A DNA stretch of 64,000 nucleotides. Origin: Candidatus Lustribacter sp. (lineage in GTDB: Bacteria; Vulcanimicrobiota; Vulcanimicrobiia; Vulcanimicrobiales; Vulcanimicrobiaceae). The translations under genes were made by a program, and so were the position numbers. Positions 5,475 through 52,196 of the stretch are shown piece by piece; position 1 is the first letter of the stretch, and every line of letters starts with the position of its first letter. Under the pieces are notes generated by a model. The model saw only the letters and a program-made list of their open reading frames with translations. It had not been told where the DNA came from and made no database searches. The DNA lies in assembly GCA_965277805.1 (NCBI GenBank), contig OZ255842.1:320001-384000 (forward strand), given 5' to 3'.

Positions 5475-5547
5475 GCGCGTTCGTTCGCCAAAACGGCGCA
5501 AGTCCGTCCTTGACGGGACGGCCCAGGTAGTATATGAACTGGACCAT

Positions 5548-6396: not shown

Positions 6397-6546
6397 TGCG
6401 CGTGCAACCCAGCGGGCGAGCGCAGGCCCGCGCATTGCAACTTCGTTAGAGAGTGGACCGAGCGGCACCGATCAAATCGGGTCGTCGTTGTTCTTCAAAG
6501 ACGCGGAAACGCGGGACCGGCCACTCGGGCCGGATGAGGAGCAACC

Positions 6547-6876
6547 ATGAACACATTGATCAAGAACATCGTCATCGGCGCCACCGGGCTCGTGCTCGCA
6601 GCCGCTCCGTTGGCCGCTAGCGCCCAGGGCTATCACGACCAGGGCCGCGACCAGCGCGGCGCTACCTACCAGCGCGGCAGTTCGGACCAGCGCGGCAATT
6701 ATGATCATCGCGATAACCGCGGCGGCTACGGGCGACCGGAGTACCGGTCGGGATATCAGCCGGCCTACGTCAACGGCTACTTCGGCTGGGCTCCGGGCGG
6801 TTTCCAGGGCTACTACTGGAACGGTGGCTGGTATCATCACCGTCGCTGGAACGGAGGCGTGTGGATCTACTTCTAA
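6547..6876 (+). CDS. Small secreted Gly/Tyr/Trp/Arg-rich protein
   Basis: SD GAGGAG, signal peptide ending ASA-Q, aromatic-rich C-terminus. Confidence 0.75.
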   Translation: MNTLIKNIVIGATGLVLAAAPLAASAQGYHDQGRDQRGATYQRGSSDQRGNYDHRDNRGGYGRPEYRSGYQPAYVNGYFGWAPGGFQGYYWNGGWYHHRRWNGGVWIYF

Positions 6877-6906
6877 GACACGGACTACGAGTGGGTGCGG
6901 CCGGCA

Positions 6907-7544
6907 TGCTCGCGATGCTGCTGGCCACCACGGCACGGGCGCAGGTTGACCTGCGCCCGTCCGTCGTCGAAGTGGAGTGGAATACGCCGGCCGGATACGA
7001 ACGCTGCGCTGCCGTCATCACGGCGCGCCGTCCGCGGGGGCTCGAGGTGTGGACGGCCGGACACTGCGCCGATCACCCGTTTTCGATCGTCCGCTTTTTC
7101 AACGGCTATACGATGTACGGCTCGAGCGTTCGCGTCCTCGCGCACAGCGAGAACGTTGATGCGGCGCAGCTGTTCCTGAACCTCGATGCGGCGCGCGTGA
7201 GGGCTGCCCAACCCGCCGTACGCGCGCGCTCGATTCCGCCGCTCGGCACTACTGTCACGATCATCGGCCATCCGGTGTCGGCCTTACGCGGACCGAACCA
7301 GGGACGCTGGACCGTCACCTACGGGCGCATGGGCGAGACCGAACCCGACCAGCAAAGCGGTGCGCTGGAGTACGAAGTCTATTGCGGCCGCTGCGGTCCC
7401 GGCGACTCGGGTAGCGGCGTGTTCGACGCGAACGGGCACCTTCTCGGCCTTGTCTACGGCGTGACGGAGATCGATAACGTCGCCGGCGGCCGCCTCCCGG
7501 ACGGCCTCTACGCCGACGTCATCGCCGCCGGGGCGCTCCGCTAG
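6907..7544 (+). CDS. Trypsin-like (S1) serine protease, probably secreted; start uncertain (6861 or 6907)
   Basis: TAGHC and GDSGSG catalytic motifs. Confidence 0.8.
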
Positions 7545-7581
7545 CGGGCTAATCTAGCAATTCACGGGAACTGCCCAGATA

Positions 7582-8868
7582 GTGCCTGCGCTTTCCATTT
7601 TCGACGCCCAAATCTTCGCCAGCTTACGACGCCACCGCAACTACCGGCTCTATTTCTCCGGGCAGCTCGTTTCGCAGATCGGGACGTGGCTGCAGAACGC
7701 AGCGCAGGCCTGGCTCGTCCTCGGTATCACGAATTCGCCCGAAGCGGTCGGCGTGCTGAGCTTCTTCCTATATCTGCCGTACGCGATCTTGGGCCTGATC
7801 GGCGGCGCGCTGGCCGACCGCTGGGATCGCCAGCGCATGATCATCATCACGCAGACGCTGATGGCGCTGTGCGCCGCGGCCCTGGCCGTCGTCGCCTACT
7901 TGCACGTCGACAGCATCGCGGTCATCGATACGATCGCGTTCGTGCGCGGCACGGTAATGGCATTCAACAACCCGACCCGCCAAGCGATCATGATCCAACT
8001 CGTCGGCCGTTCCGAGCTGCCCAATGCGATCGCGCTCAACTCGAGCTTGAACAACGCGACGCGCATCATCGGCCCGGCGATCGCGGGCGTCCTGATCTCC
8101 TCGGTCGGCGTGGGCCTCTGCTTCGCGCTCAACGCGGTCAGCTTCGTCGCGGTCATCTTCGCGCTCATGATCATGCGGCGCGATGAGTTCTTCCCGACCG
8201 GCAGCAACACGCGCACGCCGCTGATCAAGTCGATCAAGGACGGCCTCGTCTACGCGCGCCGCACGAAGACCGTTGCGGTCGTGTTGACGATGCTGTTCGT
8301 CATCTCGACCGTCAGCATCAACTTCCAAGTCATTCTGCCGGTCATGGCCAAAAACACGCTGCACGGAACCGCGCAAACGTACGGCTTCATCTGGTCGATG
8401 TTCGGCCTCGGCGCGTTCATCGGCGCCGTCTCCGCCGCTTCGCGCAAACGCGTGTCGCGCCGGCTGCTGCTCTGGGCCGCCGCCGGCTTCGGCCTCGCGC
8501 AACTCGTCGTCGCGACGCAGAACACGGTGGTCGGCGTTTCGATCGCGCTGTTCGTCACCGGCATCTGCTATTCGATCTACACGTCGAGTTCGAATTCGAT
8601 CGTGCAGCTCGCGGTCCCGATGCACTTGCAAGGCCGCATCGCCGGCCTCTACAACTACGTCTTTCTCGCCTCGGGCCCGCTCGGCTCGCTACTAGCCGGT
8701 TGGTTGGCCGAACGAGGCGCGCCGCTAGCGTTCATCGCCGGCGGCGTAGCCGCGGTCGTGATGGCGTTTTTCGGTTATACGCAGCGTCCGTGGCCGATGC
8801 CGACCGGTACGCATCGCCCGCGCCGCCGGCGCCGTAACCAAATCGCGAGTGTGACGCAGCGCGCATAA
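7582..8868 (+). CDS. MFS transporter (DHA3/EntS-like)
   Basis: GQLVSQIGTWLQ, GGALADRWDR, multiple TM helices. Confidence 0.9.
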   Translation: MPALSIFDAQIFASLRRHRNYRLYFSGQLVSQIGTWLQNAAQAWLVLGITNSPEAVGVLSFFLYLPYAILGLIGGALADRWDRQRMIIITQTLMALCAAALAVVAYLHVDSIAVIDTIAFVRGTVMAFNNPTRQAIMIQLVGRSELPNAIALNSSLNNATRIIGPAIAGVLISSVGVGLCFALNAVSFVAVIFALMIMRRDEFFPTGSNTRTPLIKSIKDGLVYARRTKTVAVVLTMLFVISTVSINFQVILPVMAKNTLHGTAQTYGFIWSMFGLGAFIGAVSAASRKRVSRRLLLWAAAGFGLAQLVVATQNTVVGVSIALFVTGICYSIYTSSSNSIVQLAVPMHLQGRIAGLYNYVFLASGPLGSLLAGWLAERGAPLAFIAGGVAAVVMAFFGYTQRPWPMPTGTHRPRRRRRNQIASVTQRA

Positions 8869-39098: not shown

Positions 39099-39770
39099 AT
39101 GACTGACCCCTATACGCAACGTTTGGCGCGGCTCGATTGCTGCGCCGTTTCGGACGCCCTCGATAAACTCAACCTCACCGGTGTGGTGACCGTGCTGCCG
39201 CAGCGCTCGTCGTCGCGCCGCATCGCCGGCCGCGCGATCACGGTGAAACTCGTCGCCAAAGAGCAAGCGCCGGTGACCACCGGTCCGCCACGCCATTTGG
39301 GCACGACGGCGATCGAGTCCGGCGGTCCCGGCGACATCATCGTCGTCGAACAGCGCAGCGGCATCGAGGCGGGTTCGTGGGGCGGTATCCTCTCGTGCGC
39401 GGCCAAGGTGCGCGGCATCGAAGGCGTGATCGCCGACGGTCCGGTGCGCGATATCGACGAAGCGCGCGCGTACGATCTGCCGATCTACTCGCGCGGCCTC
39501 ACCGCGCGCACGGCCCGCGGCCGCGTGGCCGAAGCCGCCACCAACGTCGACGTGCGCATCGACGAGATCACGGTCTCGCCCGGCGACTACGTGCTGGCCG
39601 ACAACAGCGCCGTGATCTTCATCGGCAAGGCCAACATCGAAGCAGTGCTCGCCGCTGCGGAAGACATCGCCGCGCGCGAAGCCGCGATGGCGAAAGCATT
39701 GCTCGCCGGTCAGCCGGTCGGCACCGTGATGGGCGCCAACTACGAGAACATGCTGGCGGTGCACGCGTGA
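39099..39770 (+). CDS. RraA/HMG-aldolase family protein 1
   Basis: CAVSDALD, WGGIL, DGPVRD, PGDYVLAD. Confidence 0.88.
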   Translation: MTDPYTQRLARLDCCAVSDALDKLNLTGVVTVLPQRSSSRRIAGRAITVKLVAKEQAPVTTGPPRHLGTTAIESGGPGDIIVVEQRSGIEAGSWGGILSCAAKVRGIEGVIADGPVRDIDEARAYDLPIYSRGLTARTARGRVAEAATNVDVRIDEITVSPGDYVLADNSAVIFIGKANIEAVLAAAEDIAAREAAMAKALLAGQPVGTVMGANYENMLAVHA

Positions 39771-40426
39771 GCGACAAGAACGTCGAACGGGCCGCGAAGC
39801 TCGACAACGCGACCATCAGCGATGCGCTCGACAAATTCGGGCTCAACGGCGCGTGCTACAAGATCGCGCCGCGCGACGGCTCGTTCCGGATGGCCGGGCG
39901 CGCGTACACGCTGCTCTACGAAGTGTGCGGGAACCCGCCAGGAACGGTCGGCGACTACATCGACGACATCGAACCCGGCACGGTGCTGGTGCTCGACAAT
40001 GCCGGTCGCGAAAGCGGCACGGTCTGGGGCGACATCCTCACCGAGGTCGCGCACCGGCGCGGCGTTGCCGGCACGGTGATCGACGGCCTTTGCCGCGACG
40101 TCGCGCTTTGCCGCCAGCTCGGCTATCCGGTGTATAGCAAAGATCACTGGATGCGCACCGGCAAAGACCGCGTGCAACTCGATCAAGTGCAAGTGCCGGT
40201 CAGCATCGGCGGCGTGCGCGTCTCGCCCGGCGACATCGTGCGCGGCGATGCCGACGGCGTATGCGTGATCCAGAAAGAGTTCGAAGACCAGGTGCTCGAC
40301 TGGGCCGAGCAAGTGACGCTGGTCGAAGATCGCATTCGCGAAGCCGCCCGCGGCGGAATGCGCTTGGTCGAAGCGCGCAAACAATTCGGCTACCACACGC
40401 TGCAAACGCGAGATAAAAAAGCATGA
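39767..40426 (+). CDS. RraA/HMG-aldolase family protein 2
   Basis: ATISDALD, WGDIL, DGLCRD, PGDIVRGDADG. Confidence 0.88.
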   Translation: MSDKNVERAAKLDNATISDALDKFGLNGACYKIAPRDGSFRMAGRAYTLLYEVCGNPPGTVGDYIDDIEPGTVLVLDNAGRESGTVWGDILTEVAHRRGVAGTVIDGLCRDVALCRQLGYPVYSKDHWMRTGKDRVQLDQVQVPVSIGGVRVSPGDIVRGDADGVCVIQKEFEDQVLDWAEQVTLVEDRIREAARGGMRLVEARKQFGYHTLQTRDKKA

Positions 40427-41106
40427 CGACCACGGCCAAATCGTACAAGTTCTTCGATCTCCCCACCGTCAAGCTCGAGATCGAACGCCCGGATGCAGAA
40501 CTGGTGAAACGCGCCAAGACGTTCGGTACCGCGACGCTGCACGAAGCGGGCGGTAAGATCGGCGCGTTGCCCTCGGCGATCAAGCCGATGGATCCGAAGT
40601 TCATCATCTCGGGGCCGGCCTTCACCGTGCACTCGCCGCCGGGCGATAATCTCTGGCTGCACCGCGCGATCGCGGTGGCGAAGCCCGGCGACATCCTGGT
40701 GGTCTACACCGAGGGCGTCTACGAGCACGGCTACTGGGGCGAGATCATGTCGACCGCCGGCAACGCCGCGAAGCTCGGCGGACTCGTGATCGATGCGTGC
40801 GTGCGCGACGGCGCGCTGCTCGGCAAGGTCGGTTTTCCGGTGTTCGCGCGCGGGCTCTGCATCCGCGGCACCGGCAAGGACTTCGCCGCCCGCGGCTGGA
40901 TCAACGCGCCGCTGCTGCTCGGCGACGTCACGGTCGAACCGGGCGATCTGATCGTCGGCGATACCGACGGCGTCGTGGCGATCCCGCGCGCCAAGGTCGA
41001 GACCGTGCTGCAGAAATCGCGCGAACGCGAAGAAAAGGAAGCGGAAACGATGCGCCAGCTCGTCGCCGGAAATTCGTCGATCGATCTTTACGGGTGGGAC
41101 AAATGA
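40423..41106 (+). CDS. RraA/LigK-like HMG/CHA aldolase 3
   Basis: TATLHEA, PGDNLWLH, WGEIM, DACVRD, GDTDGVV. Confidence 0.88.
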   Translation: MTTTAKSYKFFDLPTVKLEIERPDAELVKRAKTFGTATLHEAGGKIGALPSAIKPMDPKFIISGPAFTVHSPPGDNLWLHRAIAVAKPGDILVVYTEGVYEHGYWGEIMSTAGNAAKLGGLVIDACVRDGALLGKVGFPVFARGLCIRGTGKDFAARGWINAPLLLGDVTVEPGDLIVGDTDGVVAIPRAKVETVLQKSREREEKEAETMRQLVAGNSSIDLYGWDK

Positions 41107-42833
41107 TCGCGCCGGAGCGGGCCGGCGCCAAACGGCATCTGAACGTTCAGACGACGGCCGAGGCCCTGCTCGCGCACATCAAACGCAACGGCACCGAGTA
41201 TTTCTTCGTGAACGCCGGGACTGATTTCGCCTCGGTCGTCGAAGCGTATGCGCGGCTCGATGAATCGGGCCTCGACTTCCCCACGCCGATCGTCGCGACG
41301 CACGAAAACCTCGCCGTCGGCATGGCCCACGGGTATTACCTGATCGCGCGTACGCCGCAAGCGGTGATGTGTCACGTCAGCGTCGGCTCCGCCAACGCGA
41401 TCTGTGCGATCATGAACGCCTCGCGCGACCAGATCCCGATCATCTTCATGTCGGGCCGCACGCCGCTGTTCGAATCGGGCAAGTTCGGCAGCCGCAACGG
41501 CGACATCCATTGGCCGCAAGAGATGTTCGACCAGGGCGGCATGATGCGTGAAGTCGTCAAGTGGGACTACGAACTGCGCGACGGCCTCAACGTCGAACAA
41601 GTCGTCGATCGCGCCTATGGGATCGCGCAAGCGGCGCCCAGCGGTCCGATCTATTTGATGCTGCCGCGTGAAGTGCTCGCCGGCAAACTCGACGGCGCCG
41701 ACGTACGCGCCGAAGTTCCGGCCGTGCCGGCCCCGCCGTTCCCGAGTCCCGACCACGTCACCACGATCGCGCGCAAGCTGGCCACGGCCGAGTTCCCCGT
41801 GATCGTGACTTCGGCCAGCGGCGCCGACGCGTCGACCGTCGCGCCGCTTACCGCGCTTTGCGAACGCTTCGGCATCGCGCACGTCGACCGCAAAGCGCGT
41901 TTCGTGAACGTGCCGACCGGCAGCCCGATCCATCTCTCGCAAGGGCTCGAGGATCTGTTCGATGAGATCGACGCGCTGCTGTTCCTCGAAACCGACGTGC
42001 CGTGGATTCCCAGTCGCGGCAACCCGCGTCCGGAAACGTTCATCGCCGACGCCGGCACCGATCCGCTCTTCGGGCTCATTCCGATCCGCAGCTTTCCGGC
42101 CGACGTGTCGCTCACGACCACGGTCGCGGCGCTGCTTCCCGAACTCGAGCGGGCGCTGGAGACAGCCGGCGCCGAGCAAGGCGCGGCCGCGCGCCGCGAG
42201 CGCATCGCAACGAAGCGCGCTAGCGGTATCGCCGCGATCGAAGAACGCGTCGCGGCCGATGCCAAGCGCGGCGGACCGATCACCAAGATCTTTCTCTCGC
42301 GTGCGCTCGATAACGCGCGCGACAAACGCGACATCGTGGTGAACGAATACTCCGCGATGCCCGACTACATGGAGTTCAACCAACCCGCGACGTGGTTTCT
42401 CAACCCGCCGGCGGCCGGCCTCGGCTGGGGGATGCCGGCCGCGATCGGCGTGAAGCTCGCATCGCCCGACCGCAACGTCATCGCGGTGCTGGGCGACGGT
42501 GCGTACATTTTCGCCAACCCGGCGGCGTGTCATCACGCGATCGCGATGCACGACCTGCCGCTGCTCACGATCATCTACAACAACGCGCGCTGGGAAGCCG
42601 TTCAGAGCTCGGCGCGCGGCATGTACAAAGCGGAGTCGGCGCTCGGCAAACACAAGCTCGCGCCGCTTTCGTCGCTCGACCCGATCCCTGACTTCGAACG
42701 TTACGCCGAGGCCTCGAACGGCGTCGGCTTCCGCGTCACGGAACGCGCGGAACTCGAATCCACTATCCGGCGCGCGCTGAAGATCGTGCAAACGGAACGC
42801 AAACAAGTGCTGATCAACGTGATCGGTTCGTAA
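41103..42833 (+). CDS. Thiamine-pyrophosphate-requiring enzyme
   Basis: HENLAVGMAHGY, GLGWGMPAAIG, GDGAY...NN TPP motif. Confidence 0.88.
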   Translation: MIAPERAGAKRHLNVQTTAEALLAHIKRNGTEYFFVNAGTDFASVVEAYARLDESGLDFPTPIVATHENLAVGMAHGYYLIARTPQAVMCHVSVGSANAICAIMNASRDQIPIIFMSGRTPLFESGKFGSRNGDIHWPQEMFDQGGMMREVVKWDYELRDGLNVEQVVDRAYGIAQAAPSGPIYLMLPREVLAGKLDGADVRAEVPAVPAPPFPSPDHVTTIARKLATAEFPVIVTSASGADASTVAPLTALCERFGIAHVDRKARFVNVPTGSPIHLSQGLEDLFDEIDALLFLETDVPWIPSRGNPRPETFIADAGTDPLFGLIPIRSFPADVSLTTTVAALLPELERALETAGAEQGAAARRERIATKRASGIAAIEERVAADAKRGGPITKIFLSRALDNARDKRDIVVNEYSAMPDYMEFNQPATWFLNPPAAGLGWGMPAAIGVKLASPDRNVIAVLGDGAYIFANPAACHHAIAMHDLPLLTIIYNNARWEAVQSSARGMYKAESALGKHKLAPLSSLDPIPDFERYAEASNGVGFRVTERAELESTIRRALKIVQTERKQVLINVIGS

Positions 42834-42842
42834 GGAGTAGTC

Positions 42843-43868
42843 ATGCCAATCATCGATGCCCACGCGCACGTGAGCGTTCCCTCGGAAGTCTGGGCGTATA
42901 AAGCCGGCCTGCTCTCGCACCGCGGCGCGCACGGCAATCGCGGCCCGAAACTGAGCGACGACGAACTGATCGAGGCCTACCACAAGAAGGAGATGGCGCC
43001 GGTCGGACATCTCGAGTCGATGAAGCTCAACCAGATCGACGTCCAGCTGATTTCGCCGCGGCCCTTCCAGATGATGCACAGCGAGAAGTTCAAGCTCGTG
43101 CAGTGGTTCACCGAAGAAATCAACAACATCATCTACCGCGACACGCAGCTCTTCCCGGGCCAGTTCTACGGCGTTTGCTCGATGCCGCAAGCCGCCGGCG
43201 AGCCGATCGAAAAGTCGCTGCCCGAACTCGAGCGCTGCATCAAGGAACTCGGTTTCGTGGGCACGCTGCTCAACCCCGATCCCTACGAGAACACCGGCAC
43301 CGAAGCGCCGCCGCTCGGCGACAAGTACTGGTACCCGCTCTATGAGAAGCTGTGCGAACTCGACGTGCCGGCGCACATCCACGGCACGACCTCGCATTCC
43401 GAGCGCACGCCCTACACGCTGCACTTCATCAACGAAGAGACGATCGCGGTCTACGGCCTGATCAACTCGAACGTATTCAAGGATTTCCCGACACTGAAGA
43501 TCGTAGTCTCGCACGGCGGCGGCGCGATCCCGTATCAGTTCGGGCGCTTCCAGTCGGGCTCGATGCGCAACCCGCCCGGTCAGCGCTTCAGCGACGGGCT
43601 GAAGAAGCTCTACTTCGATACGGTGCTCTACACCGAATCGGCGATGAAGCTGCTGGTCGAAGTAATGGGTCCCGACAACCTCGTCTTCGGCGCGGAATGC
43701 CCGGGTGTCGGTTCATCCGTCAATCCCGACACGAACCACACCTTCGACGACATCGTGCCCTTCATCCAACGCATGGACACGCTCGACGACACGCAGCGTC
43801 AAAACATCCTCGAAAACAACGCCCGCCGCCTCTACAAAATCCCCGCCGCGAAGCCCGCCCTCGTGTAA
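42843..43868 (+). CDS. Amidohydrolase_2, LigJ-like (4-oxalomesaconate hydratase family)
   Basis: IIDAHAH, SPRP, LLNPDP, SHGGGAIPYQ, YFDT. Confidence 0.8.
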   Translation: MPIIDAHAHVSVPSEVWAYKAGLLSHRGAHGNRGPKLSDDELIEAYHKKEMAPVGHLESMKLNQIDVQLISPRPFQMMHSEKFKLVQWFTEEINNIIYRDTQLFPGQFYGVCSMPQAAGEPIEKSLPELERCIKELGFVGTLLNPDPYENTGTEAPPLGDKYWYPLYEKLCELDVPAHIHGTTSHSERTPYTLHFINEETIAVYGLINSNVFKDFPTLKIVVSHGGGAIPYQFGRFQSGSMRNPPGQRFSDGLKKLYFDTVLYTESAMKLLVEVMGPDNLVFGAECPGVGSSVNPDTNHTFDDIVPFIQRMDTLDDTQRQNILENNARRLYKIPAAKPALV

Positions 43869-43870
43869 CC

Positions 43871-43955
43871 CTGTCATCCCGAGCTTGTCGAGGGACCGCA
43901 CGAATTGTGGCGGTCCCTCGACGACGCACCTACGGTGCTTTGCTCGGGATGACAG
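43871..43955. repeat. REP-like palindromic element
   Basis: CTGTCATCCCGAGC...GCTCGGGATGACAG outer IR and GTCGAGGGAC/GTCCCTCGAC inner IR. Confidence 0.85.
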
Positions 43956-44679
43956 ACGTCAGTGCGGCAACTACGGCTGCCGGCTTCCAATCAGCGTTGT
44001 CGAAGAGTTGGGTTATCCGGCCGTCGGCGTTGACGACGGCGAGGCGTTCGCTGTGGACGATCGTGTCGGCGCCGGCGGAGCGTTCGAGGATGCGGAAGCG
44101 GGCGGCGAAGTCGAGGACCGTGCGCGGGTCGCCCGTTAGGAGATGCCAGCGCGCTGGATCGGCGTTGAAGAGCTTTCCATAGCGCGCAAGCACCGGCGGA
44201 CGGTCGTAGGCCGGATCGAGCGATACCTCGACCAGGTCGGCCGGCGTGCCCTTCGTGCGCGATTGCACTTGTTCGAGTTTGGCCGACACGAACGGACACA
44301 TCTTCGGATCGCGGCAGCGCGTGTAGATGAAGGTCAAGGCGTAGGGGTGGCCGTGTAAGGCGCTCAGGCGTGCGGGGCGGCCGCGTTCGTCGACGAACGG
44401 GATGTCGGGAACGGTATCGCCGGCGTTGACGAACTTCGGCAGCGTGTTTTTCTGTACGGTCGCGACGCTCGTAACGTGGAGCGCGGACAAACTCCACGGT
44501 TCGGTTTTTGTGTTGACGTCGGCCGCGATGTGATCGCCGGGATGGACGGCCGTGCCGGCGGGCACGCTGAACGTCATCGTCATCGCGGGCATGCCGTCGA
44601 AGGCTTCGTGATGCACGACGAGCGTCGTCGGGGTCAGCGTCATCAGCACGATGCCCGCCAGGTGCAGAAGATGATGCAC
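43930..44679 (-). CDS. SCO-family copper chaperone with N-terminal CusF-like domain
   Basis: HHEAFDGMPAMTMTF; FIYTRCRDPKMCP; IVHS. Confidence 0.85.
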   Translation of the reverse strand: MHHLLHLAGIVLMTLTPTTLVVHHEAFDGMPAMTMTFSVPAGTAVHPGDHIAADVNTKTEPWSLSALHVTSVATVQKNTLPKFVNAGDTVPDIPFVDERGRPARLSALHGHPYALTFIYTRCRDPKMCPFVSAKLEQVQSRTKGTPADLVEVSLDPAYDRPPVLARYGKLFNADPARWHLLTGDPRTVLDFAARFRILERSAGADTIVHSERLAVVNADGRITQLFDNADWKPAAVVAALTSVIPSKAP

Positions 44680-46290
44680 TTAGAGCACCGCGATCTTCGC
44701 CATCATTCCGCCGTCTTCATGATCGAGGATGTGGCAGTGGAACAGGAACGTGCCGCGGATCGTGGGATCGCGGAAGTCGATCAGCACCTTCATCTGCGAG
44801 GGGATGATTTGTCCCGTCACGCCGATACCGACCGGCGGCATGACCACCGTGTCGAGCCAGTGCTGGTTGGGCTGCGTCACGCCGTTGATGCTCTCGACGA
44901 TGAAGTGCGTCTGATGGATGTGGAAGTCGTGGATCTCCTGCGTATCGTTTTCGAGCGTCCACTCCTCGGTTGTGCCGGAGGCCGCGGTGAACATCGGCGG
45001 CGACGACGCGCTGTACTGCAGGCCGTTGATGTAGAACCCGTTGTCGTCCTCGGTGAAGTGCACGAGCCGCTCTTGCGCGGGCGCGGGCATCGACGAGTGA
45101 TAGTACTGCGAGTAGCGCACCGAGGCGAGCCGCTGCACGCGATGGGATTGCGTGACGGAGGTCGCGGCATTGGGCCAGTTCGTGTCGTCGGTCAGCACGC
45201 CGAGCGCGATCTCCGGGCTCGTGTCGCCGTCCGGGCCCGTCTGCACGCACTTCGAGATCAGGGCGGCCGGCGACGCCGAACCGGTGACGAGAAACTCGGC
45301 GCGCCCGGCGGGCGGAATCACGATGTCGCTCATTGCGATCGTCGCCGGCGCACCGGGATAGGTGTTGATCGGCACGCCGTCTTGCGCGACGAGCTGCAAT
45401 TGCTTGCCGTCGATAGCGAGGTCGAAGTGACGGTGGGCGGACGCGTTGACGACGCGGAAGAGTTCGGTTTCGCCGGGCTTGATCCCGATCGACGCGAGCG
45501 TTGCGCCGTTGATCATCGGCGTGGCGTCGGTTTCGGGCGAACACGCGTTGCCCCCGTTCGGCGAGTCGGCATCCTGCGCACCGCGGCGTGCGGCGCTCGT
45601 GCGGCGCACGACCGACGCGCCGCCCGAGCGGCGCAGAATCGAGCTCTCGCCGGCAGCGAACGATGAATCGTTCGGTACGTCGCCGAGAATGATCACGCGC
45701 TCGCGCAGGCCCGCCGTCTGCGGCACGACGTTGGCGATGCCTTCGACGATGATCGCGCCGGCCATACCGTTGCCGACTTCGTACGACGCGAGACCGTGCG
45801 CGTGCGGGTGGTACCAATACATGCCGGGCGGCTGATCGGGGTTGATCACGACGGTGTAGCTGACCGCGGCACCGGGCGAGGCATTGGTATCGATCGTGTC
45901 GTCGCCCGGCGCGTTCGGCGATGAGGAGAGGCCGTGGAAGTGGAGGTTGGCGTTCGAGACGACGCCGACGTCGCAAAATTCGGGCAGCTGGTTCTGGAAC
46001 GTGAGTTGGATCGTGTCGCCGGGATGCACGCGAATCGTCGGTGCGACCTGTTGGCCTTGCCAGTAGAACTCGGGGCGGCTGTTGGCATCGAACTTCGCTT
46101 GCAGCGTCAGCGATGCGACGCCGTTGACGCTGTCGACTTCGGGCAACGTGTTCAATGCGGCCGGGCCGCCGGGCACGGACACGCCGGTTGGAACCGGCGC
46201 CGGCACGGCGGACGACCCGCCCCCGCCGCACGCGATGAGGCCGAGAGCGATGATGATTGCCGCTGCAGCGGAGAGAGCAACGTAACGCAT
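44680..46290 (-). CDS. Multicopper oxidase, probable lipoprotein
   Basis: NLHFHG, WYHPH, HDFHIH, HCHILDHEDGGMM; lipobox-like LIAC. Confidence 0.92.
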   Translation of the reverse strand: MRYVALSAAAAIIIALGLIACGGGGSSAVPAPVPTGVSVPGGPAALNTLPEVDSVNGVASLTLQAKFDANSRPEFYWQGQQVAPTIRVHPGDTIQLTFQNQLPEFCDVGVVSNANLHFHGLSSSPNAPGDDTIDTNASPGAAVSYTVVINPDQPPGMYWYHPHAHGLASYEVGNGMAGAIIVEGIANVVPQTAGLRERVIILGDVPNDSSFAAGESSILRRSGGASVVRRTSAARRGAQDADSPNGGNACSPETDATPMINGATLASIGIKPGETELFRVVNASAHRHFDLAIDGKQLQLVAQDGVPINTYPGAPATIAMSDIVIPPAGRAEFLVTGSASPAALISKCVQTGPDGDTSPEIALGVLTDDTNWPNAATSVTQSHRVQRLASVRYSQYYHSSMPAPAQERLVHFTEDDNGFYINGLQYSASSPPMFTAASGTTEEWTLENDTQEIHDFHIHQTHFIVESINGVTQPNQHWLDTVVMPPVGIGVTGQIIPSQMKVLIDFRDPTIRGTFLFHCHILDHEDGGMMAKIAVL

Positions 46291-46297
46291 CGGATCC

Positions 46298-47446
46298 TCA
46301 GTACGCGAACAGTAGCGATGACGAGATGATGTGGAGCAAGTTACCGTTGTAGTCGCGCTCGGCGGTTTCGAACAGCGTTAGGCGCGAGTTGGCGGAAAGA
46401 CGATAGCCGGCGCCGCCGGTGATCGAGCGCGCGAACGTCGCGCCGTTGGTCGCGTCCCAGCGCGCGATCGCGAACGCGCGACTGCCTAGCGCCTGCCGCA
46501 CTTGGAAGAAGCCGCCGCTCGTGACGAGTGCATCGCCGTACACGTCGGCCGAACTGTCGTTGCCGATCTGATAGACGCCGTCGATCTCGGTGCGGTTGTG
46601 CGCCCAGCCGAGGCCGAAACCGTTGCGCCAAAAGCGATCGGGAATGTTGCTGAAAAACGCCGAGTTATTGAACGCCGGGCCTTCGAGCGGGCGGCTTCCA
46701 TCGTAGCGATAGCTCGTGAGCCTGAACTTTCCGAGGTCGCGCTCGAGCGTCACCATCGTGTCGACGCCGTTGGACGGCAAGCCCGATTGCGTGTCGGCGC
46801 CCTTGAGGGCCGAGAGCGTCGCACCGATCTGACGCGATGGATTGCCGGCTTCCAATTCGAGGCCTTGCTTCGTATCGAAGAAGTTGAACGGGTTGCCGCC
46901 CGCGGTCTGGCTCCAGACGCCGTACGGCTGCGTCGTCTCACGGAACGTTTCCGGATCGAGCGGCAACGGCAGCGTGAATTGACCGGCGCGCAGGAGCAGC
47001 GGGAAGTTCGCGCCGTCGGGGGTGAGGCGATCGGCGAACCACGCATCGCGCACGACGCCCGGATAGCCGCCGTCGACCGCATACGGCTCGAGCCAGTACG
47101 AAGCGCGCGAACCGACCGAGCCGCCCATCAGGAACTCGACCTCGTTGACGATCGTTTTGGGCAGCGGCCCTTTGATCTCGTCGGGGTCGGCGGCGCCGGC
47201 GCTGGCGTAGTCGACCTCCACCCGGATCGCCACCGGGAAGGCCGGCTTCGGCGTGATCCCCGGGATCCGGTAACCGTTGGCCATGAATGTCTTTCCGAAC
47301 TGGGTGAGGTGGGGGACCTCGGTGTGGCACGCCTGGCACGTCAGGTTGAAGCGATGGGCGAACACGGGAATCGCCTCGGCGCGGCTCATGGTGAGCGCGG
47401 CGAACGCGACGACGGCTGCGCAGAACGGGAAGAAAGCGCGAAACAT
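46298..47446 (-). CDS. Cyc2-like monoheme cytochrome c fused to a probable beta-barrel
   Basis: Signal peptide then IPVFAHRFNLTCQACHTEVPHLTQFGKTFMANGY; beta-strand-rich remainder ending in aromatic residue (FAY). Confidence 0.75.
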   Translation of the reverse strand: MFRAFFPFCAAVVAFAALTMSRAEAIPVFAHRFNLTCQACHTEVPHLTQFGKTFMANGYRIPGITPKPAFPVAIRVEVDYASAGAADPDEIKGPLPKTIVNEVEFLMGGSVGSRASYWLEPYAVDGGYPGVVRDAWFADRLTPDGANFPLLLRAGQFTLPLPLDPETFRETTQPYGVWSQTAGGNPFNFFDTKQGLELEAGNPSRQIGATLSALKGADTQSGLPSNGVDTMVTLERDLGKFRLTSYRYDGSRPLEGPAFNNSAFFSNIPDRFWRNGFGLGWAHNRTEIDGVYQIGNDSSADVYGDALVTSGGFFQVRQALGSRAFAIARWDATNGATFARSITGGAGYRLSANSRLTLFETAERDYNGNLLHIISSSLLFAY

Positions 47447-47466
47447 AGGTCTTCCTAAGCGACTGA

Positions 47467-47508
47467 TTAGGTGATCCAACTTAGGCCGTCCTAATTAGGC
47501 ACTCCTCC
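47467..47508. promoter_or_regulatory. Three tandem 14-bp TTAGG-N4-CCTAA-like boxes
   Basis: ttaggtgatccaac, ttaggccgtcctaa, ttaggcactcctcc in exact register. Confidence 0.65.
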
Positions 47509-47515
47509 AACCTGC

Positions 47516-47532
47516 TTAGAGAATTTTTAGAG
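47516..47532. promoter_or_regulatory. Direct repeat TTAGAG-N5-TTAGAG (OmpR/PhoB-type geometry)
   Basis: 11-bp period hexamer repeat in a divergent intergenic region. Confidence 0.5.
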
Positions 47533-47571
47533 CGCAGGTGCCCCCGAAGGGCTGCACCAAGGCTGCTCGCG

Positions 47572-48357
47572 ATGATCCATCGCACGCGCGCGGCCGAAAT
47601 CCGTGACCGGAAAGGTCGGCCGTTCGCGACGATCACCGCCTACGATGCGGCGTTCGGGCGCGCTGCCGAAGCCGCCGGCATCGATCTGATCCTGGTCGGC
47701 GATTCGCTCGGCAACGTCGTGCTCGGTTTTCCATCGACCGTGTCGGTGACGATCGAGGACATGGAGCGCCACGGCGCCGCCGTCGTGCGCGGTACGGAGC
47801 GCTCGCACGTATGTATCGACATGCCGTTCATGTCGTACGAAGCGTCGAATGAAGACGCGATCCGCAACGCCGGCCGGCTGATCCGCTGCGGCGCGCAGTC
47901 GGTGAAGCTCGAAGGCGGCGTCGAGCGGGCCGAACGGCTAGCGGCCGTCGCCGGCGCCGGAATTCCGGTGATCGCGCACATCGGCGTCGTGCCGCAAACG
48001 GCAGCGCTCGACCGCGGCTTCCGGCGGCGCAAGGATCGCGACCGTTTGATCGCCGACGCGGATGCGGTGGCCGCTGCCGGCGCGTTTGCCGTCGTGCTCG
48101 AGATGGTCGATGGCGACATCGCGCGCGAGATTACGCAGCGCATCTCGATTCCGACGATCGGCATCGGGAGCGGCGGCGGCTGCGACGCACAGATTCTCGT
48201 GCTCTACGATTTGCTCGGGTTCTCGGCGTTCATTCCGCCGTTTGCGAAACCGTACGTGAATCTCTTCGACGTCGTGACCGGCGTGATGCGCCACTACGCG
48301 GACGACGTCGCGGCCGGACGCGATCCCGCCGACGGACCATCGGAACGGGTGAGCTAG
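47572..48357 (+). CDS. panB: 3-methyl-2-oxobutanoate hydroxymethyltransferase
   Basis: TAYD, ILVGDSLG, DMPFMSY, VKLEGG, PTIGIG. Confidence 0.95.
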   Translation: MIHRTRAAEIRDRKGRPFATITAYDAAFGRAAEAAGIDLILVGDSLGNVVLGFPSTVSVTIEDMERHGAAVVRGTERSHVCIDMPFMSYEASNEDAIRNAGRLIRCGAQSVKLEGGVERAERLAAVAGAGIPVIAHIGVVPQTAALDRGFRRRKDRDRLIADADAVAAAGAFAVVLEMVDGDIAREITQRISIPTIGIGSGGGCDAQILVLYDLLGFSAFIPPFAKPYVNLFDVVTGVMRHYADDVAAGRDPADGPSERVS

Positions 48358-48360
48358 GCG

Positions 48361-48798
48361 ATGCTCGTGCTGGCAGCGGTCGCTGTCAACGCGTTTCTGA
48401 GCGCGTTCGGCGGCACGTGGGCGTGCACGCCGCATTTGCCGGGCGCCGTCTCCGCACCGGTGTCGACGTGGACGATCGCAGCCGAGCCGAAGAGTTCGTG
48501 GGTCGTCGTGCGCTGGTCGACGCGCGGCGAGCACGGCACGGCATTCGTTGGTTACATCGTACCCGAATCGCAGTGGATTTATGAAGATTTCCACAGCGAC
48601 GGCAGCTTTTCGTCTAACACGACGCCCGGGCCGCAGAACGGCGTGTGGACGTGGAGCGGTACGTTTACCTCACCGCAGCGCGAGCAGCACGGCGCGATTC
48701 AGTGGCGCCGGACCAACGGCGGTTTCCGTCAGGGTTTCGGCCGTCTGCTCGGCACGTCGTTTCGCGAATCCGCCTATTCGGAGTGCGAGGCCAGGTAG
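48361..48798 (+). CDS. Hypothetical secreted beta-rich protein
   Basis: Signal-like N-terminus, GTWAC motif, terminal Cys. Confidence 0.6.
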   Translation: MLVLAAVAVNAFLSAFGGTWACTPHLPGAVSAPVSTWTIAAEPKSSWVVVRWSTRGEHGTAFVGYIVPESQWIYEDFHSDGSFSSNTTPGPQNGVWTWSGTFTSPQREQHGAIQWRRTNGGFRQGFGRLLGTSFRESAYSECEAR

Positions 48799-49772
48799 TC
48801 GTCCATCAAGTCGTCGAGGAAGAAGCGGTCGTAGGACGTCATCGATTGGCCCTGCGGAATGCCGCCGACGAAATGAAACAGGTTGGCATCTTCATCGACC
48901 CAGTCGTCGCCACGGCCGAACGCTTTGTGAAAGCGAATGCCGTTCGGGCTGCCGTGCATGAGCGTGCGCGCTCGAAGCTGCGTGCCGTCGCCGGCGAACT
49001 TGCGCGTTTCCATGTCGAACGGCCACTCCGGCAGCTCGGCCCACATGCGCTCGTGGTTCGGCCAGAAATCCGCTTCTGATACGAGCAGCGCGGTATGGCA
49101 ATCGGAGAAAACGCCGCGGCCGCTCGCGCGCAGGCCCGGTTCGGCCGCTGATTTGAAGACCAGCCGTCCGGCCGTTGCGAGCGGAAGCACGAGCGTGTCG
49201 CCGGCGATCTCCGCCGAACGCAGCGGCGTTAGGCCGCAGTAGCGGGCGAAGAAGTCCGCCGTCCGCTGCAGGTCGCGGCTCGCGTAAGTGATGTGGCTGA
49301 TGCGTCCGACGCGGTGTTTGGACGCATGGTCCATCGCGCCGTCCGGAATGCTTTGCGGCGCCCAGAATTCGAACTGATTGCCGTCGGGATCGAGCCAGTA
49401 GATCGCCGTGCCGTTCTCGCCGTCGGCCGCGGTTCGCACGGGTTCCGAGCGGGTCACGCCGTTCGCATCGAGACGCTGCAGATGCGAGCCGATGTCCTCG
49501 GGACGGATGAAGAGCGCATGCCGCGGATAGCCTTGGCCGGGCGGCTGCGCCGGCGGCAGCGGCTCGCGCATCACGAACAAGCCATGATGGCAGTGTCCGC
49601 CGCGCAGCTTCAGCTCCGGATGCGAAAACGCTTGAAACACGCCGCGTTCGCGTGGCAAGCCGGAGTCGGGGATCGTTTCGGCGCCGAGCACCCGTTCGTG
49701 AAAATCGATCGAACGCGCGAGATCATTTGTCGGAATGGTGTAATGATCGATCCAGTAGATCGTGCCCGCCAT
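48774..49772 (-). CDS. VOC-family (glyoxalase/extradiol dioxygenase fold) protein
   Basis: IDHYTI...DL..S..F, YWLDPDGNQFEF, ISHIT. Confidence 0.75.
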   Translation of the reverse strand: MAGTIYWIDHYTIPTNDLARSIDFHERVLGAETIPDSGLPRERGVFQAFSHPELKLRGGHCHHGLFVMREPLPPAQPPGQGYPRHALFIRPEDIGSHLQRLDANGVTRSEPVRTAADGENGTAIYWLDPDGNQFEFWAPQSIPDGAMDHASKHRVGRISHITYASRDLQRTADFFARYCGLTPLRSAEIAGDTLVLPLATAGRLVFKSAAEPGLRASGRGVFSDCHTALLVSEADFWPNHERMWAELPEWPFDMETRKFAGDGTQLRARTLMHGSPNGIRFHKAFGRGDDWVDEDANLFHFVGGIPQGQSMTSYDRFFLDDLMDDYLASHSE

Positions 49773-49827
49773 AGGCTTCAGCCTTAGCACGGAAGAATGT
49801 TTTACCCCTTCCGCACGGAGGCACCGC

Positions 49828-51024
49828 ATGGACGTCGTCGACGGCCGAACGCAAGTCACTAACGGGGATCTTTATTCCACCAAGCCCGGAACGCTGGCGG
49901 GCCGGTATTTGCGGCGTTTTTGGCAGCCTCTGGGCCGTTCGCAAGACGTGCACGTTGGCCGAGCGTATACGATGAAGATCATGTCCGAACTCCTCACCGT
50001 CTATCGCGGTGAGAACGGACGCGTACACGTCGTGCAATCGCACTGCCCGCATCGTGCGACGCTGCTCTCGACCGGCTGGGTCGAAGGTGACGCACTGCGC
50101 TGCCACTATCACGGCTGGAAGTATGACGAGACCGGACAGTGCGTCGAGCAGCCGGGCGAGGACGCGGGCTTTGCCGCGAAGATCTGCCTGCGCACGTATC
50201 CCGCGCAAGACTACCTCGGCCTCGTGTTTGTGTATTTGGGTGAAGGCGAGGCGCCGCCGATTCGTCGCTTCTCGGATTTCGAGGCGCCGGGCGTGGTCGA
50301 AGTACCGGCGTTGATCGAGTACTGGCCGTGCAATCTCTTCAACCGGATCGACAACGCCGGCGATCCGGGCCACATCGCATACACGCACAAAGAGTCGCTG
50401 CGCCGGAACACCGGCTTCAAACTTTCGCCGCCCAACTGCTCGGTCGAAGAGACGGAGTACGGTACGCGAGCGTTTGAAAAACTCCCCGACGGCACGACGA
50501 TCTACCCGTCGCACTTCCACATGCCGAACATCAACCAAGTCGGTGCGCGGGCGCAGTTCAAGAGCGCGAGCGGCGAGATGAAGTTCGTTACCGGCGAGCG
50601 TCTGTTTTTTCGCGTGCCGGTCGATGACGAACATTCGGTGAGTTATACGGTCGAGTATTTTCCGCTCGAACCCGACGATGCGTCGGCCTATCTCGCCACG
50701 CGGCCGGACCGTCAGGATCAGCGCCTGCCGGAGCTGCGCGCGCATAGCGAAGCCATCTTGCGCAACGAAACGACGGTCGAAGACGCCGACCCCACGTTCA
50801 CCACCCAGCAGATGTTCTGGATCGAAGATTATATGGTGCAGGTCGGACAGCTACCGATCTCCGACGATCGCGAAGAGCACTTGGGCCGCACCGACATGGG
50901 CATCATTCTCATCCGGAAGTTGTGGCGGCGCGAGCTGCAAGCGCTGGCCGATGGCCGCCCACTACAGAATTGGACCGCACCGGCGGGCCTGAATGCACTC
51001 GGTTTGACGGGAGGTACGAAATGA
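49828..51024 (+). CDS. Rieske non-heme iron oxygenase alpha subunit (phthalate 4,5-dioxygenase-like)
   Basis: CPH...CHYHGW Rieske motif; DPGHIAYTH iron site; EHLGRTD C-terminus; SD GGAGG. Confidence 0.88.
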   Translation: MDVVDGRTQVTNGDLYSTKPGTLAGRYLRRFWQPLGRSQDVHVGRAYTMKIMSELLTVYRGENGRVHVVQSHCPHRATLLSTGWVEGDALRCHYHGWKYDETGQCVEQPGEDAGFAAKICLRTYPAQDYLGLVFVYLGEGEAPPIRRFSDFEAPGVVEVPALIEYWPCNLFNRIDNAGDPGHIAYTHKESLRRNTGFKLSPPNCSVEETEYGTRAFEKLPDGTTIYPSHFHMPNINQVGARAQFKSASGEMKFVTGERLFFRVPVDDEHSVSYTVEYFPLEPDDASAYLATRPDRQDQRLPELRAHSEAILRNETTVEDADPTFTTQQMFWIEDYMVQVGQLPISDDREEHLGRTDMGIILIRKLWRRELQALADGRPLQNWTAPAGLNALGLTGGTK

Positions 51025-52196
51025 CAATTCGCCGCGCTGCGGTTGCGGTTTTCCTGGCGGTGCTGCTCACGGCCGCGTCGCCGTTTGCGCGCGCCGCGGA
51101 CCCGGTCGAGATCAACGTGCTCGTCGGCACCACCGGATATACCGCATTCGTCGGCCAGGAGCAGTTGCAGGCGCTCAAGGCGCTGCAAAGCTACGTCAAC
51201 GCGACCGGCGGCATTCGCGGCCGGCCCTTGTCGTTCGTCGTTGCCGATGACCAAAGCAATCCGAAGGTCTCCGTGCAACTCGCGCAAGGTCTCATTGCCA
51301 AACACGTGCCGTTGATTCTCGGCCCGTCGGGACCGGATGCGTGCGCGGCGATTTCGCCGCTGGTCGTACAGAACGGACCGGTGCTCTATTGCCTTTCACC
51401 CACGGCGCAGGCACAGGCCGGCGGCTACGTGTTCCTCACGCAGCTTTCCGGCGAGTCGGGAATGGCCGTCAACGTGCGCTACCTGCGCGAACGGGGCTTG
51501 CGTAAGATCGCGTTCGTGGCCTCCACCGATGCGACCGGGCAAGATGCGGAGCGCGCGCTGAACGCCGTGCTTGCGCGCCCGGAGAACGCGACGGTGCAGG
51601 TCGTCACCCGGCAGCACTTCGCACCGGCCGATCTCAGCATCGCGGCGCAAATGGCTGCGCTCAAAGCGGCAAGTCCCGATGCGCTGATCGCGTGGTCCGC
51701 GGGAACGCCGGCGGGAACGCTCTTCCGCAGCCTGCACGATAGCGGCATCGACCTCCCGACGGTGACGTCGGCCGCGAACCTCAACCCGCTCTTCTTCAAG
51801 CAGTACGGTCAGTTCGCACCGCGGGACCTGTACTTCAACGCGGTGCCGTATTATGGCGGTAAGATCGTGACGAACGCACCGACAAAAAATGCACTCGCAA
51901 CGCTGACGCGCGAGCTCGCGAAATCCGGTGCGAAGCCCGATCAGATCGAAATCAGCGCGTGGGATCCGGCAATGATCGTCGTCGATGCGTTGCGCAAACT
52001 CGGCCCGGATGCGACGGCGGCGCAGCTGCACGCGTATCTGTCGGGCTTGAACGGTTACGCGGGGGTCAACGGGCCTTATGATTTCAACCGTTTCCCGCAA
52101 CGCGGGCTCGGTGAAAACTCCGCGCTCGTGGTGCGCTGGGATACGGGGCGCGGCGAAGCTGCTGCAGTCAGCCGCTTCGGCGGCGAGCCGCTTTAG
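51021..52196 (+). CDS. LivK-type ABC substrate-binding protein
   Basis: Signal peptide; NATGGIRGRP..DDQSNP. Confidence 0.85.
   Translation: MTIRRAAVAVFLAVLLTAASPFARAADPVEINVLVGTTGYTAFVGQEQLQALKALQSYVNATGGIRGRPLSFVVADDQSNPKVSVQLAQGLIAKHVPLILGPSGPDACAAISPLVVQNGPVLYCLSPTAQAQAGGYVFLTQLSGESGMAVNVRYLRERGLRKIAFVASTDATGQDAERALNAVLARPENATVQVVTRQHFAPADLSIAAQMAALKAASPDALIAWSAGTPAGTLFRSLHDSGIDLPTVTSAANLNPLFFKQYGQFAPRDLYFNAVPYYGGKIVTNAPTKNALATLTRELAKSGAKPDQIEISAWDPAMIVVDALRKLGPDATAAQLHAYLSGLNGYAGVNGPYDFNRFPQRGLGENSALVVRWDTGRGEAAAVSRFGGEPL

Follow-up and report, generated by a model that had tools for sequence, protein, structure and literature searches.

A Cyc2-like haem-porin encoded beside a lipoprotein multicopper oxidase, a candidate outer-membrane redox module of Eremiobacterota

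The stretch of DNA analysed here (64,000 nt; hereafter the window) corresponds to positions 320001-384000 of the single 5.53-Mb contig of an uncultured soil bacterium of the phylum Eremiobacterota (Vulcanimicrobiota). On its minus strand it encodes a Cyc2-like fused monohaem cytochrome-porin (gene 1), a lipoprotein three-domain multicopper oxidase (MCO; gene 2) and a protein with CusF-like and SCO1/SenC domains (gene 3). We put at about even the chance that genes 1 and 2 constitute a two-protein outer-membrane redox module, in which the haem-porin and the tethered MCO exchange electrons and O2 serves as the sink; the substrate, the direction of electron flow, the membrane side and the physiological role of this module are what we infer. 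Evidence for this reading includes the recurrent adjacency of the two genes among close relatives and a predicted complex between their products. The three genes are tightly packed on one strand, with 7 nt between genes 1 and 2 (46291-46297) and 0 nt between genes 2 and 3, so that the layout described by an earlier reading made from the letters alone (hereafter the sequence-only reading) is borne out by the coordinates of the open reading frames (ORFs).

The haem-porin and its multicopper oxidase neighbour

The gene 1 protein reads MFRAFFPFCAAVVAFAALTMSRAEA, followed by IPVFAHRFNLT-CQACH-TEV-PHL-TQ-FG-KT-F-MAN-GY; after the AEA that closes the putative signal peptide, the mature part begins AIPVFAHRFNLT-CQACH-TEV-PHL-TQFG-KTF-MANGY. 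This is an exact match to the N-terminal pattern (signal, P-x-FA, CxxCH, PxL, FG, GY) on which the sequence-only reading had based its assignment, and the protein ends in Tyr as that reading had stated. Only one CXXCH is present (residues 37-41). In an alignment of 27 relatives, C37, C40, H41, P45 and L47 are invariant, and H31 and H46, which flank the haem site, are near-invariant. A scan of the protein against Pfam and NCBIfam gave no family match, only AhpC-TSA by chance (E 0.27). An AlphaFold2 model built from the alignment of 27 relatives (mean predicted local distance difference test (pLDDT) 71.9, predicted template-modelling score 0.72) contained 16 strands according to DSSP, with the C-terminal half of the barrel at pLDDT 80-90 and a long conserved loop after strand 5 (residues 158-192, LPLPLDPETFRETT...NPFNFF). 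When the model was compared with the PDB by Foldseek, the best matches were porins of 16 strands; OprP (2o4v) ranked 15th and OprO (4rjw) 25th, both with a template-modelling (TM) score of 0.56. The beta-barrel anticipated for this protein is thus predicted as a 16-strand porin, and porins of the PDB match it. OprP and OprO are also the structural homologues given for the Cyc2 barrel in passages of Keffer et al. 2021 (PMC8406198).

The same paper, in the passages that define Cyc2, lists a signal peptide, a single CXXCH that is preceded by the motif AXPXFAR[Q/K][T/Y] and followed four residues later by PXL, 16 strands and a length of at least 365 residues. Gene 1 shares with Cyc2 of A. ferrooxidans, Cyt572 of Leptospirillum and Cyc2PV-1 of Mariprofundus the signal peptide, the single N-terminal CXXCH, a similar length (382 aa), AxPxFA at the same spacing, PXL four residues downstream (P45-H46-L47) and the 16-strand OprO/OprP-like barrel. 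It differs in the upstream motif, where A-I-P-V-F-A-H-R-F agrees with the printed motif at 6/9 positions and in spacing and departs from it by R to H, [Q/K] to R and [T/Y] to F. The family consensus at the motif end is H-R-Y in the 27 relatives, so that FA-H-R-[F/Y] of the gene 1 family stands against FA-R-[Q/K]-[T/Y] of Cyc2. Further differences are the two extra near-invariant histidines at the haem site (H31, H46) and the partner, a three-domain MCO instead of a cytochrome c or a small cupredoxin. The screen described in part of PMC8406198 used PXFAR[Q/K][T/Y] and would have dropped gene 1, because H-R-F stands where R-[Q/K]-[T/Y] is required.

Relatives of gene 1 are numerous: 341 were found at E ≤ 0.001 in one search, and phmmer over 1.84 billion representatives returned 1276 matches at E ≤ 0.001. 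Among the best 150 of these matches, 110 had the same CXXCH spacing, the seventh motif position was occupied by H/R/Q/E/A/N, and the motif formed a continuum from FAHRY through FAQRY and FAERY to canonical FARKY. When the 27 relatives were aligned by hhalign with 22 unnamed proteins bearing canonical AXPXFAR[KQ]Y, the homology extended over 349 columns, barrel included (probability 100, E 1.4e-55). Because full-length homology is clear and the strict motif is absent, we call gene 1, on these sequence comparisons, a divergent relative of the Cyc2 family and not a member by the printed rule. The family claim of the sequence-only reading therefore stands as regards the haem motif, PXL, the OprO/OprP-like barrel and the full-length profile homology, and fails on the strict printed motif. 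Ten clusters of distant relatives were looked up and none was named; the Atlas clusters are labelled 'hypothetical protein', one of them with Porin_O_P on 20% of its members.

The putative mature end of gene 1, IPVFAHRFNL, would parallel the Edman-sequenced mature end of Cyt572, YPGFARKYNF, as quoted in a passage of the review PMC13741234. Covalent haem attachment is inferred from the motif CQACH, and the genome contains one Cytochrom_C_asm match (170 bits), from which the host can probably make c-type cytochromes. The only cultured member of the phylum is described in part of PMC9758169 as having a lipopolysaccharide outer membrane.

All four MCO copper motifs reported by the sequence-only reading were confirmed in gene 2 (HFH117, HPH161, HDFHIH454 and HCHILDHEDGGM518), and H117, H119, H161, H163, H454, H457, H459, H518, C519, H520, H524 and M529 are invariant in 16/16 orthologues. 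Pfam Cu-oxidase_3, Cu-oxidase and Cu-oxidase_2 were all matched above their cut-offs (62.1, 54.1 and 62.0 bits), and the nearest solved relatives were the Thermus laccase 2xu9 (E 1.1e-34) and then CueO, with McoC and McoP also among them. Judged by these features, gene 2 is a complete three-domain, CueO-like MCO. It carries the lipobox LIAC21, the Cys21 codon of which lies at nt 46228-46230 and is invariant in 16/16 orthologues; in all 16 the lipobox (...SCGGGG) is followed by a Gly/Ser/Pro/Ala-rich tether of ~30 residues after the lipidated Cys. This MCO is therefore a Sec-exported lipoprotein and not a soluble enzyme exported by twin-arginine translocation; a twin-arginine signal is absent from gene 2.

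Gene linkage was scanned in one genome per species at 59 loci with relatives of gene 1, nearly all from Eremiobacterota. A locus was taken as MCO-linked when an MCO lay within 1 kb downstream on the same strand, and as assessable when at least 1700 nt of downstream sequence was present (48 loci). An MCO followed the Cyc2-like gene at 18/59 loci, or 16/48 assessable loci. At 60% identity to gene 1 or above, 13/14 assessable loci were linked, with L011 as the exception; below 60% identity, 3/34 were. In the reverse direction, the MCO family was found in 159/401 sampled genomes of the phylum (E ≤ 1e-40), and a Cyc2-like gene lay upstream on the same strand at 22 of the best 30 MCO loci among the 401 genomes (one locus was unassessable). 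The forward and reverse counts are not independent, because their genomes overlap.

A quick maximum-likelihood tree (IQ-TREE) was built without L006, L036, L048, L052, L056, L057, L058 and L059, which gave no single long match, and without L053, which was too short. On this tree the MCO-linkage label needs 5 changes. The window's clade comprises 13 rows, 12 of them with an MCO and the 13th at a contig end, and in a second paralogue clade (L038, L040) the order is Cyc2-like / YceI / MCO, the MCO being a lipoprotein there as well. Since the flanking genes vary between MCO-linked loci, genes 1 and 2 are therefore regarded as a conserved unit; no other neighbour recurs among the 18 MCO-linked loci. 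The sequence-only reading had expected all three genes to be co-conserved, which holds for genes 1 and 2 (13/14 close loci; 22/30 in reverse) and does not extend to gene 3, as a third gene of SCO type follows the pair at only 7/59 loci. A search of longer proteins for a Cyc2-MCO fusion, weak evidence in itself, found none and returned only P0131, a chemoreceptor with a Cyc2-like part.

Full-text searches of the literature for a cyc2-MCO operon found no report of a Cyc2-type haem-porin paired with an MCO, and no such pairing appears in the passages retrieved from PMC10654088, PMC11412304, PMC9040806, PMC5566968 and one bioRxiv preprint. Each part belongs to a known kind.

The predicted complex and the candidate electron path

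The complex was predicted from the mature gene 1 protein (residues 25-382, 27 aligned relatives), a haem and the mature MCO (residues 22-536, 16 aligned orthologues). Scores in the three runs were 0.66, 0.63 and 0.00 (median 0.63); the best of 3 controls reached 0.00. The mark used for this score was reached by 58/80 solved complexes and by 2/110 mismatched pairs, a calibration that applies only roughly here because our own alignments were used and haem rode along. Contact agreement between the runs was at least 16% and partner pLDDT at least 81. We know of no solved porin-MCO complex, and a pass from the memory of the predictor therefore seems unlikely. By the tool's own verdict the model supports binding between gene 1 and the MCO but falls short of demonstrating it; the sequence-only reading's proposal that the barrel and the MCO be modelled together came out in favour of a complex.

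The MCO contributes residues 350-353, 453, 468-471 and 483-498 to the predicted interface; of these, 453 is the neighbour of H454, a ligand of the type-1 copper, and 483-498 form a conserved loop. The barrel contributes residues 182-184, 258-263, 300-307 and 335-336. Every barrel contact falls in a loop that follows an odd-numbered strand, and these loops are on the side away from the termini and the haem domain. In classical porins the loop face opposite the termini is the cell-surface side. Because the interface lies on the face opposite the haem domain, a periplasmic haem-to-copper relay is not shown by the model, and the sequence-only reading's path from haem through MCO to O2, if taken as a simple periplasmic relay, is at odds with this interface. 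Loop 255-266, at the interface, is an insertion present in 13/16 MCO-linked rows, and among the 36 others it is present fully in 3 and partly in 1.

In the proposed module, the oxidase would dock by its type-1 copper side onto one barrel mouth. A reduced metal ion, located at the pore or inside it, would donate the electrons, which would travel between haem and type-1 copper and finally reduce O2 at the trinuclear copper cluster. The likeliest donor would be Fe(II), on the analogy of Cyc2 and of related MCOs, whose ferroxidase activity is described in part of PMC5566968; Cu(I) and Mn(II) are possible donors. Such a chain would burn electrons at the envelope with no proton gradient, and its role would be metal handling or detoxification, not iron respiration. 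A known arrangement close to this one is the rus operon (Cyc2 to rusticyanin to Cyc1 to aa3 oxidase), which likewise pairs a haem-porin with a type-1 copper protein; unlike rusticyanin, gene 2 has a trinuclear cluster of its own at which O2 is reduced. The operon lacks a cytochrome c and a membrane oxidase, unlike rus, and so gives no sign of energy conservation.

Several observations weigh against this reading. On the protein side, the upstream motif of gene 1 departs from that printed for Cyc2, the haem domain is poorly modelled in the monomer (pLDDT 30-43 over residues 21-50), one of the three complex runs scored 0.00, and all barrel contacts sit on the face away from the haem domain; the loop 255-266 offers weak support because the rows that carry it are essentially one clade. 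On the genomic side, an MCO is absent from 32/48 assessable loci, among them L011 (68% identity), 7/30 of the best MCO loci have no Cyc2-like gene upstream, and other MCO paralogues occur in other contexts, such as a GH35-like fusion. In addition, no metal or copper regulator was seen beside genes 1-3, and gene 3 lacks an export signal in the window, L006 and L002.

One alternative is that the two genes are only co-transcribed, the Cyc2-like protein being respiratory via soluble carriers to a haem-copper oxidase (one of two) and the MCO having an unrelated role. The genome does contain two COX1 genes, an MCO is missing beside the majority of gene 1 relatives, and canonical models, in the passages of PMC13741234 on this point, have Cyc2 using Cyc1 or rusticyanin. 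We nevertheless hold this explanation to be improbable, as the linkage turns up in two paralogue clades whose flanking genes differ, the predicted complex passed against controls of 0.00, and no cytochrome c or oxidase gene lies within the operon.

A pair resembling PcoAB/CopAB is another alternative, in which the MCO would oxidise periplasmic Cu(I), the barrel would be a copper channel, gene 3 would deliver copper, and the haem would be incidental or regulatory. On the one hand, the PcoA/PcoB layout, a porin beside a periplasmic MCO, is known and was proposed as an Fe(II)-oxidising pair in passages of PMC5566968; here too an outer-membrane barrel gene stands beside an MCO gene with copper-chaperone genes nearby, CueO is among the nearest solved relatives of gene 2, and a CusF/SCO gene follows in 7 loci. 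On the other hand, the gene 1 barrel is unrelated to CopB (no match to this family at E ≤ 1 in Pfam), has 16 strands where 10-12 are stated for PcoB in the same part of PMC5566968, and carries a conserved haem motif. Gene 2 is a Sec lipoprotein without a twin-arginine signal and lies far below the NCBIfam equivalog cut-offs for CueO (115.9 vs 525 bits) and CopA (79.9 vs 478.95 bits); it has no Met-rich segment, with 11 Met in 536 residues and at most 2 per any 30 residues. Moreover, the barrel gene comes first in the operon here, and no copper regulator is adjacent. A copper pair of this kind appears unlikely to us.

A further alternative is a surface oxidase. Here the lipoprotein MCO would cap the outer barrel face, as MtrC does on MtrB and SusD on SusC, the pore haem would connect it electrically with the periplasm, and the substrates would be extracellular Fe(II), Mn(II) or the phenolic and humic matter of peat. 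The predicted contacts of gene 1 are confined to the barrel face away from the termini, this face bears the clade-specific loop insertions, and the ~30-residue tether is kept in 16/16 orthologues; if porin topology holds, the predicted interface favours this alternative. The window's operon also stands among aromatic-catabolism genes, although such flanks are common to only L001, L002, L006 and partly L058 of the 18 MCO-linked loci. Against it, the structure predictor is blind to the membrane and to sidedness, and an MCO reduces O2 itself and needs no wire. Taken together, a surface oxidase is not likely in our estimate, its standing being slightly above that of the copper pair. The likeness to MtrCAB/SusCD would lie in a lipoprotein redox enzyme that is predicted to cap the mouth of a barrel holding a haem carrier. 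The MtrCAB architecture is sketched in part of PMC8406198. In comparison with MtrCAB, the gene 1 barrel has 16 strands and not 26, one haem fused to the barrel, and as its cap a copper oxidase in place of a decahaem cytochrome.

A related possibility, which we consider rather unlikely, is that the MCO on the cell-surface mouth and the haem-porin together span the outer membrane as a wire of copper and haem, a minimal counterpart of MtrCAB that passes electrons to O2 or to the periplasm. Outside the cell, Fe(II), Mn(II) or humic phenols would then give electrons to the type-1 copper, and these would go to O2, or through the pore haem to the periplasm and from there to cupredoxins and oxidases whose genes lie elsewhere in the genome. 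If true, this would be a new, partly energy-conserving route for the oxidation of extracellular substrates in abundant peat and soil bacteria.

The distinction between the haem-porin/MCO module and iron respiration bears on how genomes are annotated. Cyc2 serves, via FeGenie, as a marker for calling organisms iron oxidisers, and FeGenie reported Cyc2 in other metagenome-assembled genomes (MAGs) of Eremiobacterota, which were read as predicted iron oxidisers in passages of PMC8357290 and PMC13594681. If the haem-porin is wired to an O2-reducing MCO, a Cyc2-like gene need not indicate iron-based energy metabolism; it could point to the detoxification of metals or their oxidation at the cell surface. 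A chain that conserves no energy matters because Cyc2 matches are read as iron lithotrophy in MAG surveys, this phylum included. The motif rule would have kept the FAHRY variant out of the published Cyc2 tree, so that current surveys may lack a branch of the family that is widespread in soil and peat. Being small (two genes), conserved and predicted to form a complex, the pair could be a practical system for the question of how a monohaem porin hands over its electrons, which it shares with Cyc2.

Gene 3, a CusF-like and SCO-type protein

The sequence-only reading had regarded gene 3 as the operon's own copper loader, a claim that came out weak, given that a third gene is present in only 7/59 loci and the export signal is absent in the window. 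The SCO assignment itself is well above threshold: Pfam SCO1-SenC scored 60.4 bits against a cut-off of 22.8, the domain aligned to B. subtilis Sco1 (E 3.4e-12) with the conserved His aligned, and C122-x5-C128 and H209 are invariant in 7/7 gene 3 orthologues. The Cys pair is spaced C-x5-C, so the CxxxC of the SCO copper site is not found. The CusF-like part is fainter, with CusF_Ec of Pfam at 20.4 bits, below its cut-off of 27 (E 4.7e-4). A profile of the 7 orthologues matched Sco1 (E 2.6e-15) and CusF (E 0.002-0.003) in the PDB, and H23, H24, M30, M33, M35 and W62, among them the CusF-type His/Met/Met/Trp positions, are invariant in all 7. A signal peptide is present on the orthologues in L001, L003 and L058 and a lipobox in L013; the third gene in L029 is a plain anchored SCO. 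In the proposed reading, gene 3 is an accessory copper chaperone carried by only some lineages, and it may be non-functional in this genome. An MCO encoded with an SCO1/SenC chaperone and a c-type haem protein is also described for mofABC-type clusters and the Geobacter OmpB region in part of PMC5566968; in our case, the haem protein is a porin fusion, and gene 2 is much smaller than MofA or OmpB.

The GTG start of gene 3 directly follows the TAA of the MCO gene and is in frame with it. Contigs of three sequencing runs (one sample) bridge this junction with zero differences, and the junction is therefore considered real. In a relative of ~95% identity, from a run of another study, one base is missing at 44679; the resulting start overlaps the stop codon as TAATG, is read in a different frame and leaves the N-terminus the same. 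L006 has an 85-nt spacer between the MCO gene and gene 3 that is missing from the window. Stop-codon read-through fusing the MCO to gene 3 was considered and ruled out by the frame-shifting TAATG relative and the L006 spacer.

Layout of the locus, paralogues and other Cyc2-like architectures

The coordinates of the genes, of the parts of gene 1 and of a repeat at the end of gene 3 are collected in Table 1. For gene 1, an alternative TTG start at 47479 would add 11 aa. The three-gene block stands alone: upstream of it is a gene for ketopantoate hydroxymethyltransferase in divergent orientation, and downstream an Amidohydro_2 gene in convergent orientation, both part of the run that resembles aromatic catabolism (see below). 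Promoter and terminator scans of the locus gave 0 promoter-like and 3 terminator-like sites, no more than in shuffles.

Table 1. Features of the three-gene block and its 3' end (positions in the window)
Feature	Coordinates	Strand	Description
Nested palindromic repeat (REP-like)	43869..43955	.	Between convergent genes; overlaps the 3' end (last codons) of gene 3
Gene 3	43930..44679	-	CusF-like + SCO1/SenC domains, 249 aa, GTG start (P0003)
Gene 3, CusF-like domain		-	~Residues 9-70
Gene 3, SCO1/SenC domain		-	~Residues 86-233; C122-x5-C128, H209
Gene 2	44680..46290	-	Lipoprotein three-domain MCO, 536 aa (P0002)
Gene 1	46298..47446	-	Cyc2-like fused monohaem cytochrome-porin, 382 aa from ATG (P0001), stop codon included
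Gene 1, beta-barrel	46301..47230	-	Residues 73-382; predicted 16 strands, C-terminus ...LLFAY
Gene 1, cytochrome domain	47231..47371	-	Residues 26-72; AIPVFAHRF motif, CQACH (37-41, nt 47324-47338), PHL (45-47)
Gene 1, signal peptide	47372..47446	-	Residues 1-25; MFR / hydrophobic core / AEA, by reading of the sequence

The repeat has outer arms ...GTCATCCCGAGC / GCTCGGGATGAC... with an inner hairpin inside. A blastn-short search of 43865-43965 against the genome gave 128 rows, and several other contigs of the sequencing runs match 43904-43954 at high depth. It looks like a repetitive extragenic palindromic (REP) element or one resembling a miniature inverted-repeat transposable element (MITE), and it may have left gene 3 with a C-terminus unlike those of its orthologues.

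Genes 1-3 are surrounded by a gene run that resembles aromatic-compound catabolism (39377-52196). It includes two RraA-type genes (by eye), a thiamine pyrophosphate (TPP) enzyme, Amidohydro_2, a glyoxalase-fold dioxygenase, a Rieske-type oxygenase (by eye) and a solute-binding protein (by eye). That gene 2 is the laccase of this surrounding cluster was rejected, as the flanks are kept only at the four loci named above (one of them in part).

Three Cyc2-like genes and one MCO of the gene 2 type are present in the genome. The first paralogue, at L069 (G000:C1:5231001-5242000, ~4926-7726), is 32% identical to gene 1, encodes 372 aa and is of the FAQRY type; its start is overlapped by the gene for a 160-aa cupredoxin lipoprotein (PF00127, E 3.6e-7). 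Beside this pair, and divergent from it, lie genes for a 204-aa lipoprotein with a C..H..M copper-site motif and for an SCO1/SenC protein (E 1e-17), and the four-gene set recurs in L031 and L033. By analogy, this arrangement of a haem-porin beside small cupredoxins and SCO resembles the Cyc2-rusticyanin pairing of the rus operon. A gene for a MASE4-GGDEF-EAL protein was observed downstream of the set. The second paralogue, at L070 (G000:C1:2387001-2399000, 5623-7298), is 43% identical and is followed by a YceI-like gene, after which comes a transporter-like gene with at least 12 hydrophobic segments. At L038 (6977-10054) and at L040, an MCO lipoprotein gene comes after this Cyc2-like / YceI pair. 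In this clade (L070, L038 and L040) the signal peptide of the Cyc2-like ORFs is very short or unrecognisable in the frames read. From the settings of these paralogues, the Cyc2-like haem-porins of the phylum therefore repeatedly accompany type-1 copper proteins and SCO chaperones.

Among close relatives of gene 1, the match to the Cyc2-like gene falls into at least 2 pieces in different frames in L006 (7001-8147), L056 and L058, which may reflect frameshifts or assembly indels. Among the MCO relatives, a paralogue on the minus strand of L097 (1495-4488) is fused downstream of a GH35-like domain (by eye) in an open frame of ~1050 aa. In one genus, many of the MCO matches lie in open frames of ~1040-1075 aa. 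Several genomes, e.g. G258, G174, G133, G190 and G266, carry MCO copies in tandem.

Other architectures of the Cyc2-like porin were also encountered. P0185 (652 aa) and P0191 (600 aa) are Cyc2-like haem-porins with C-terminal extensions bearing further CXXCH cytochrome c domains, and are natural fusions of the porin to soluble-type cytochromes. In P0131 (1035 aa) and P0144 (1043 aa), a methyl-accepting chemotaxis protein (PF00015) and a Cyc2-like porin are read as a single ORF in which a hydrophobic stretch resembling a signal separates them; these are either true fusions or adjacent genes joined by the gene caller.

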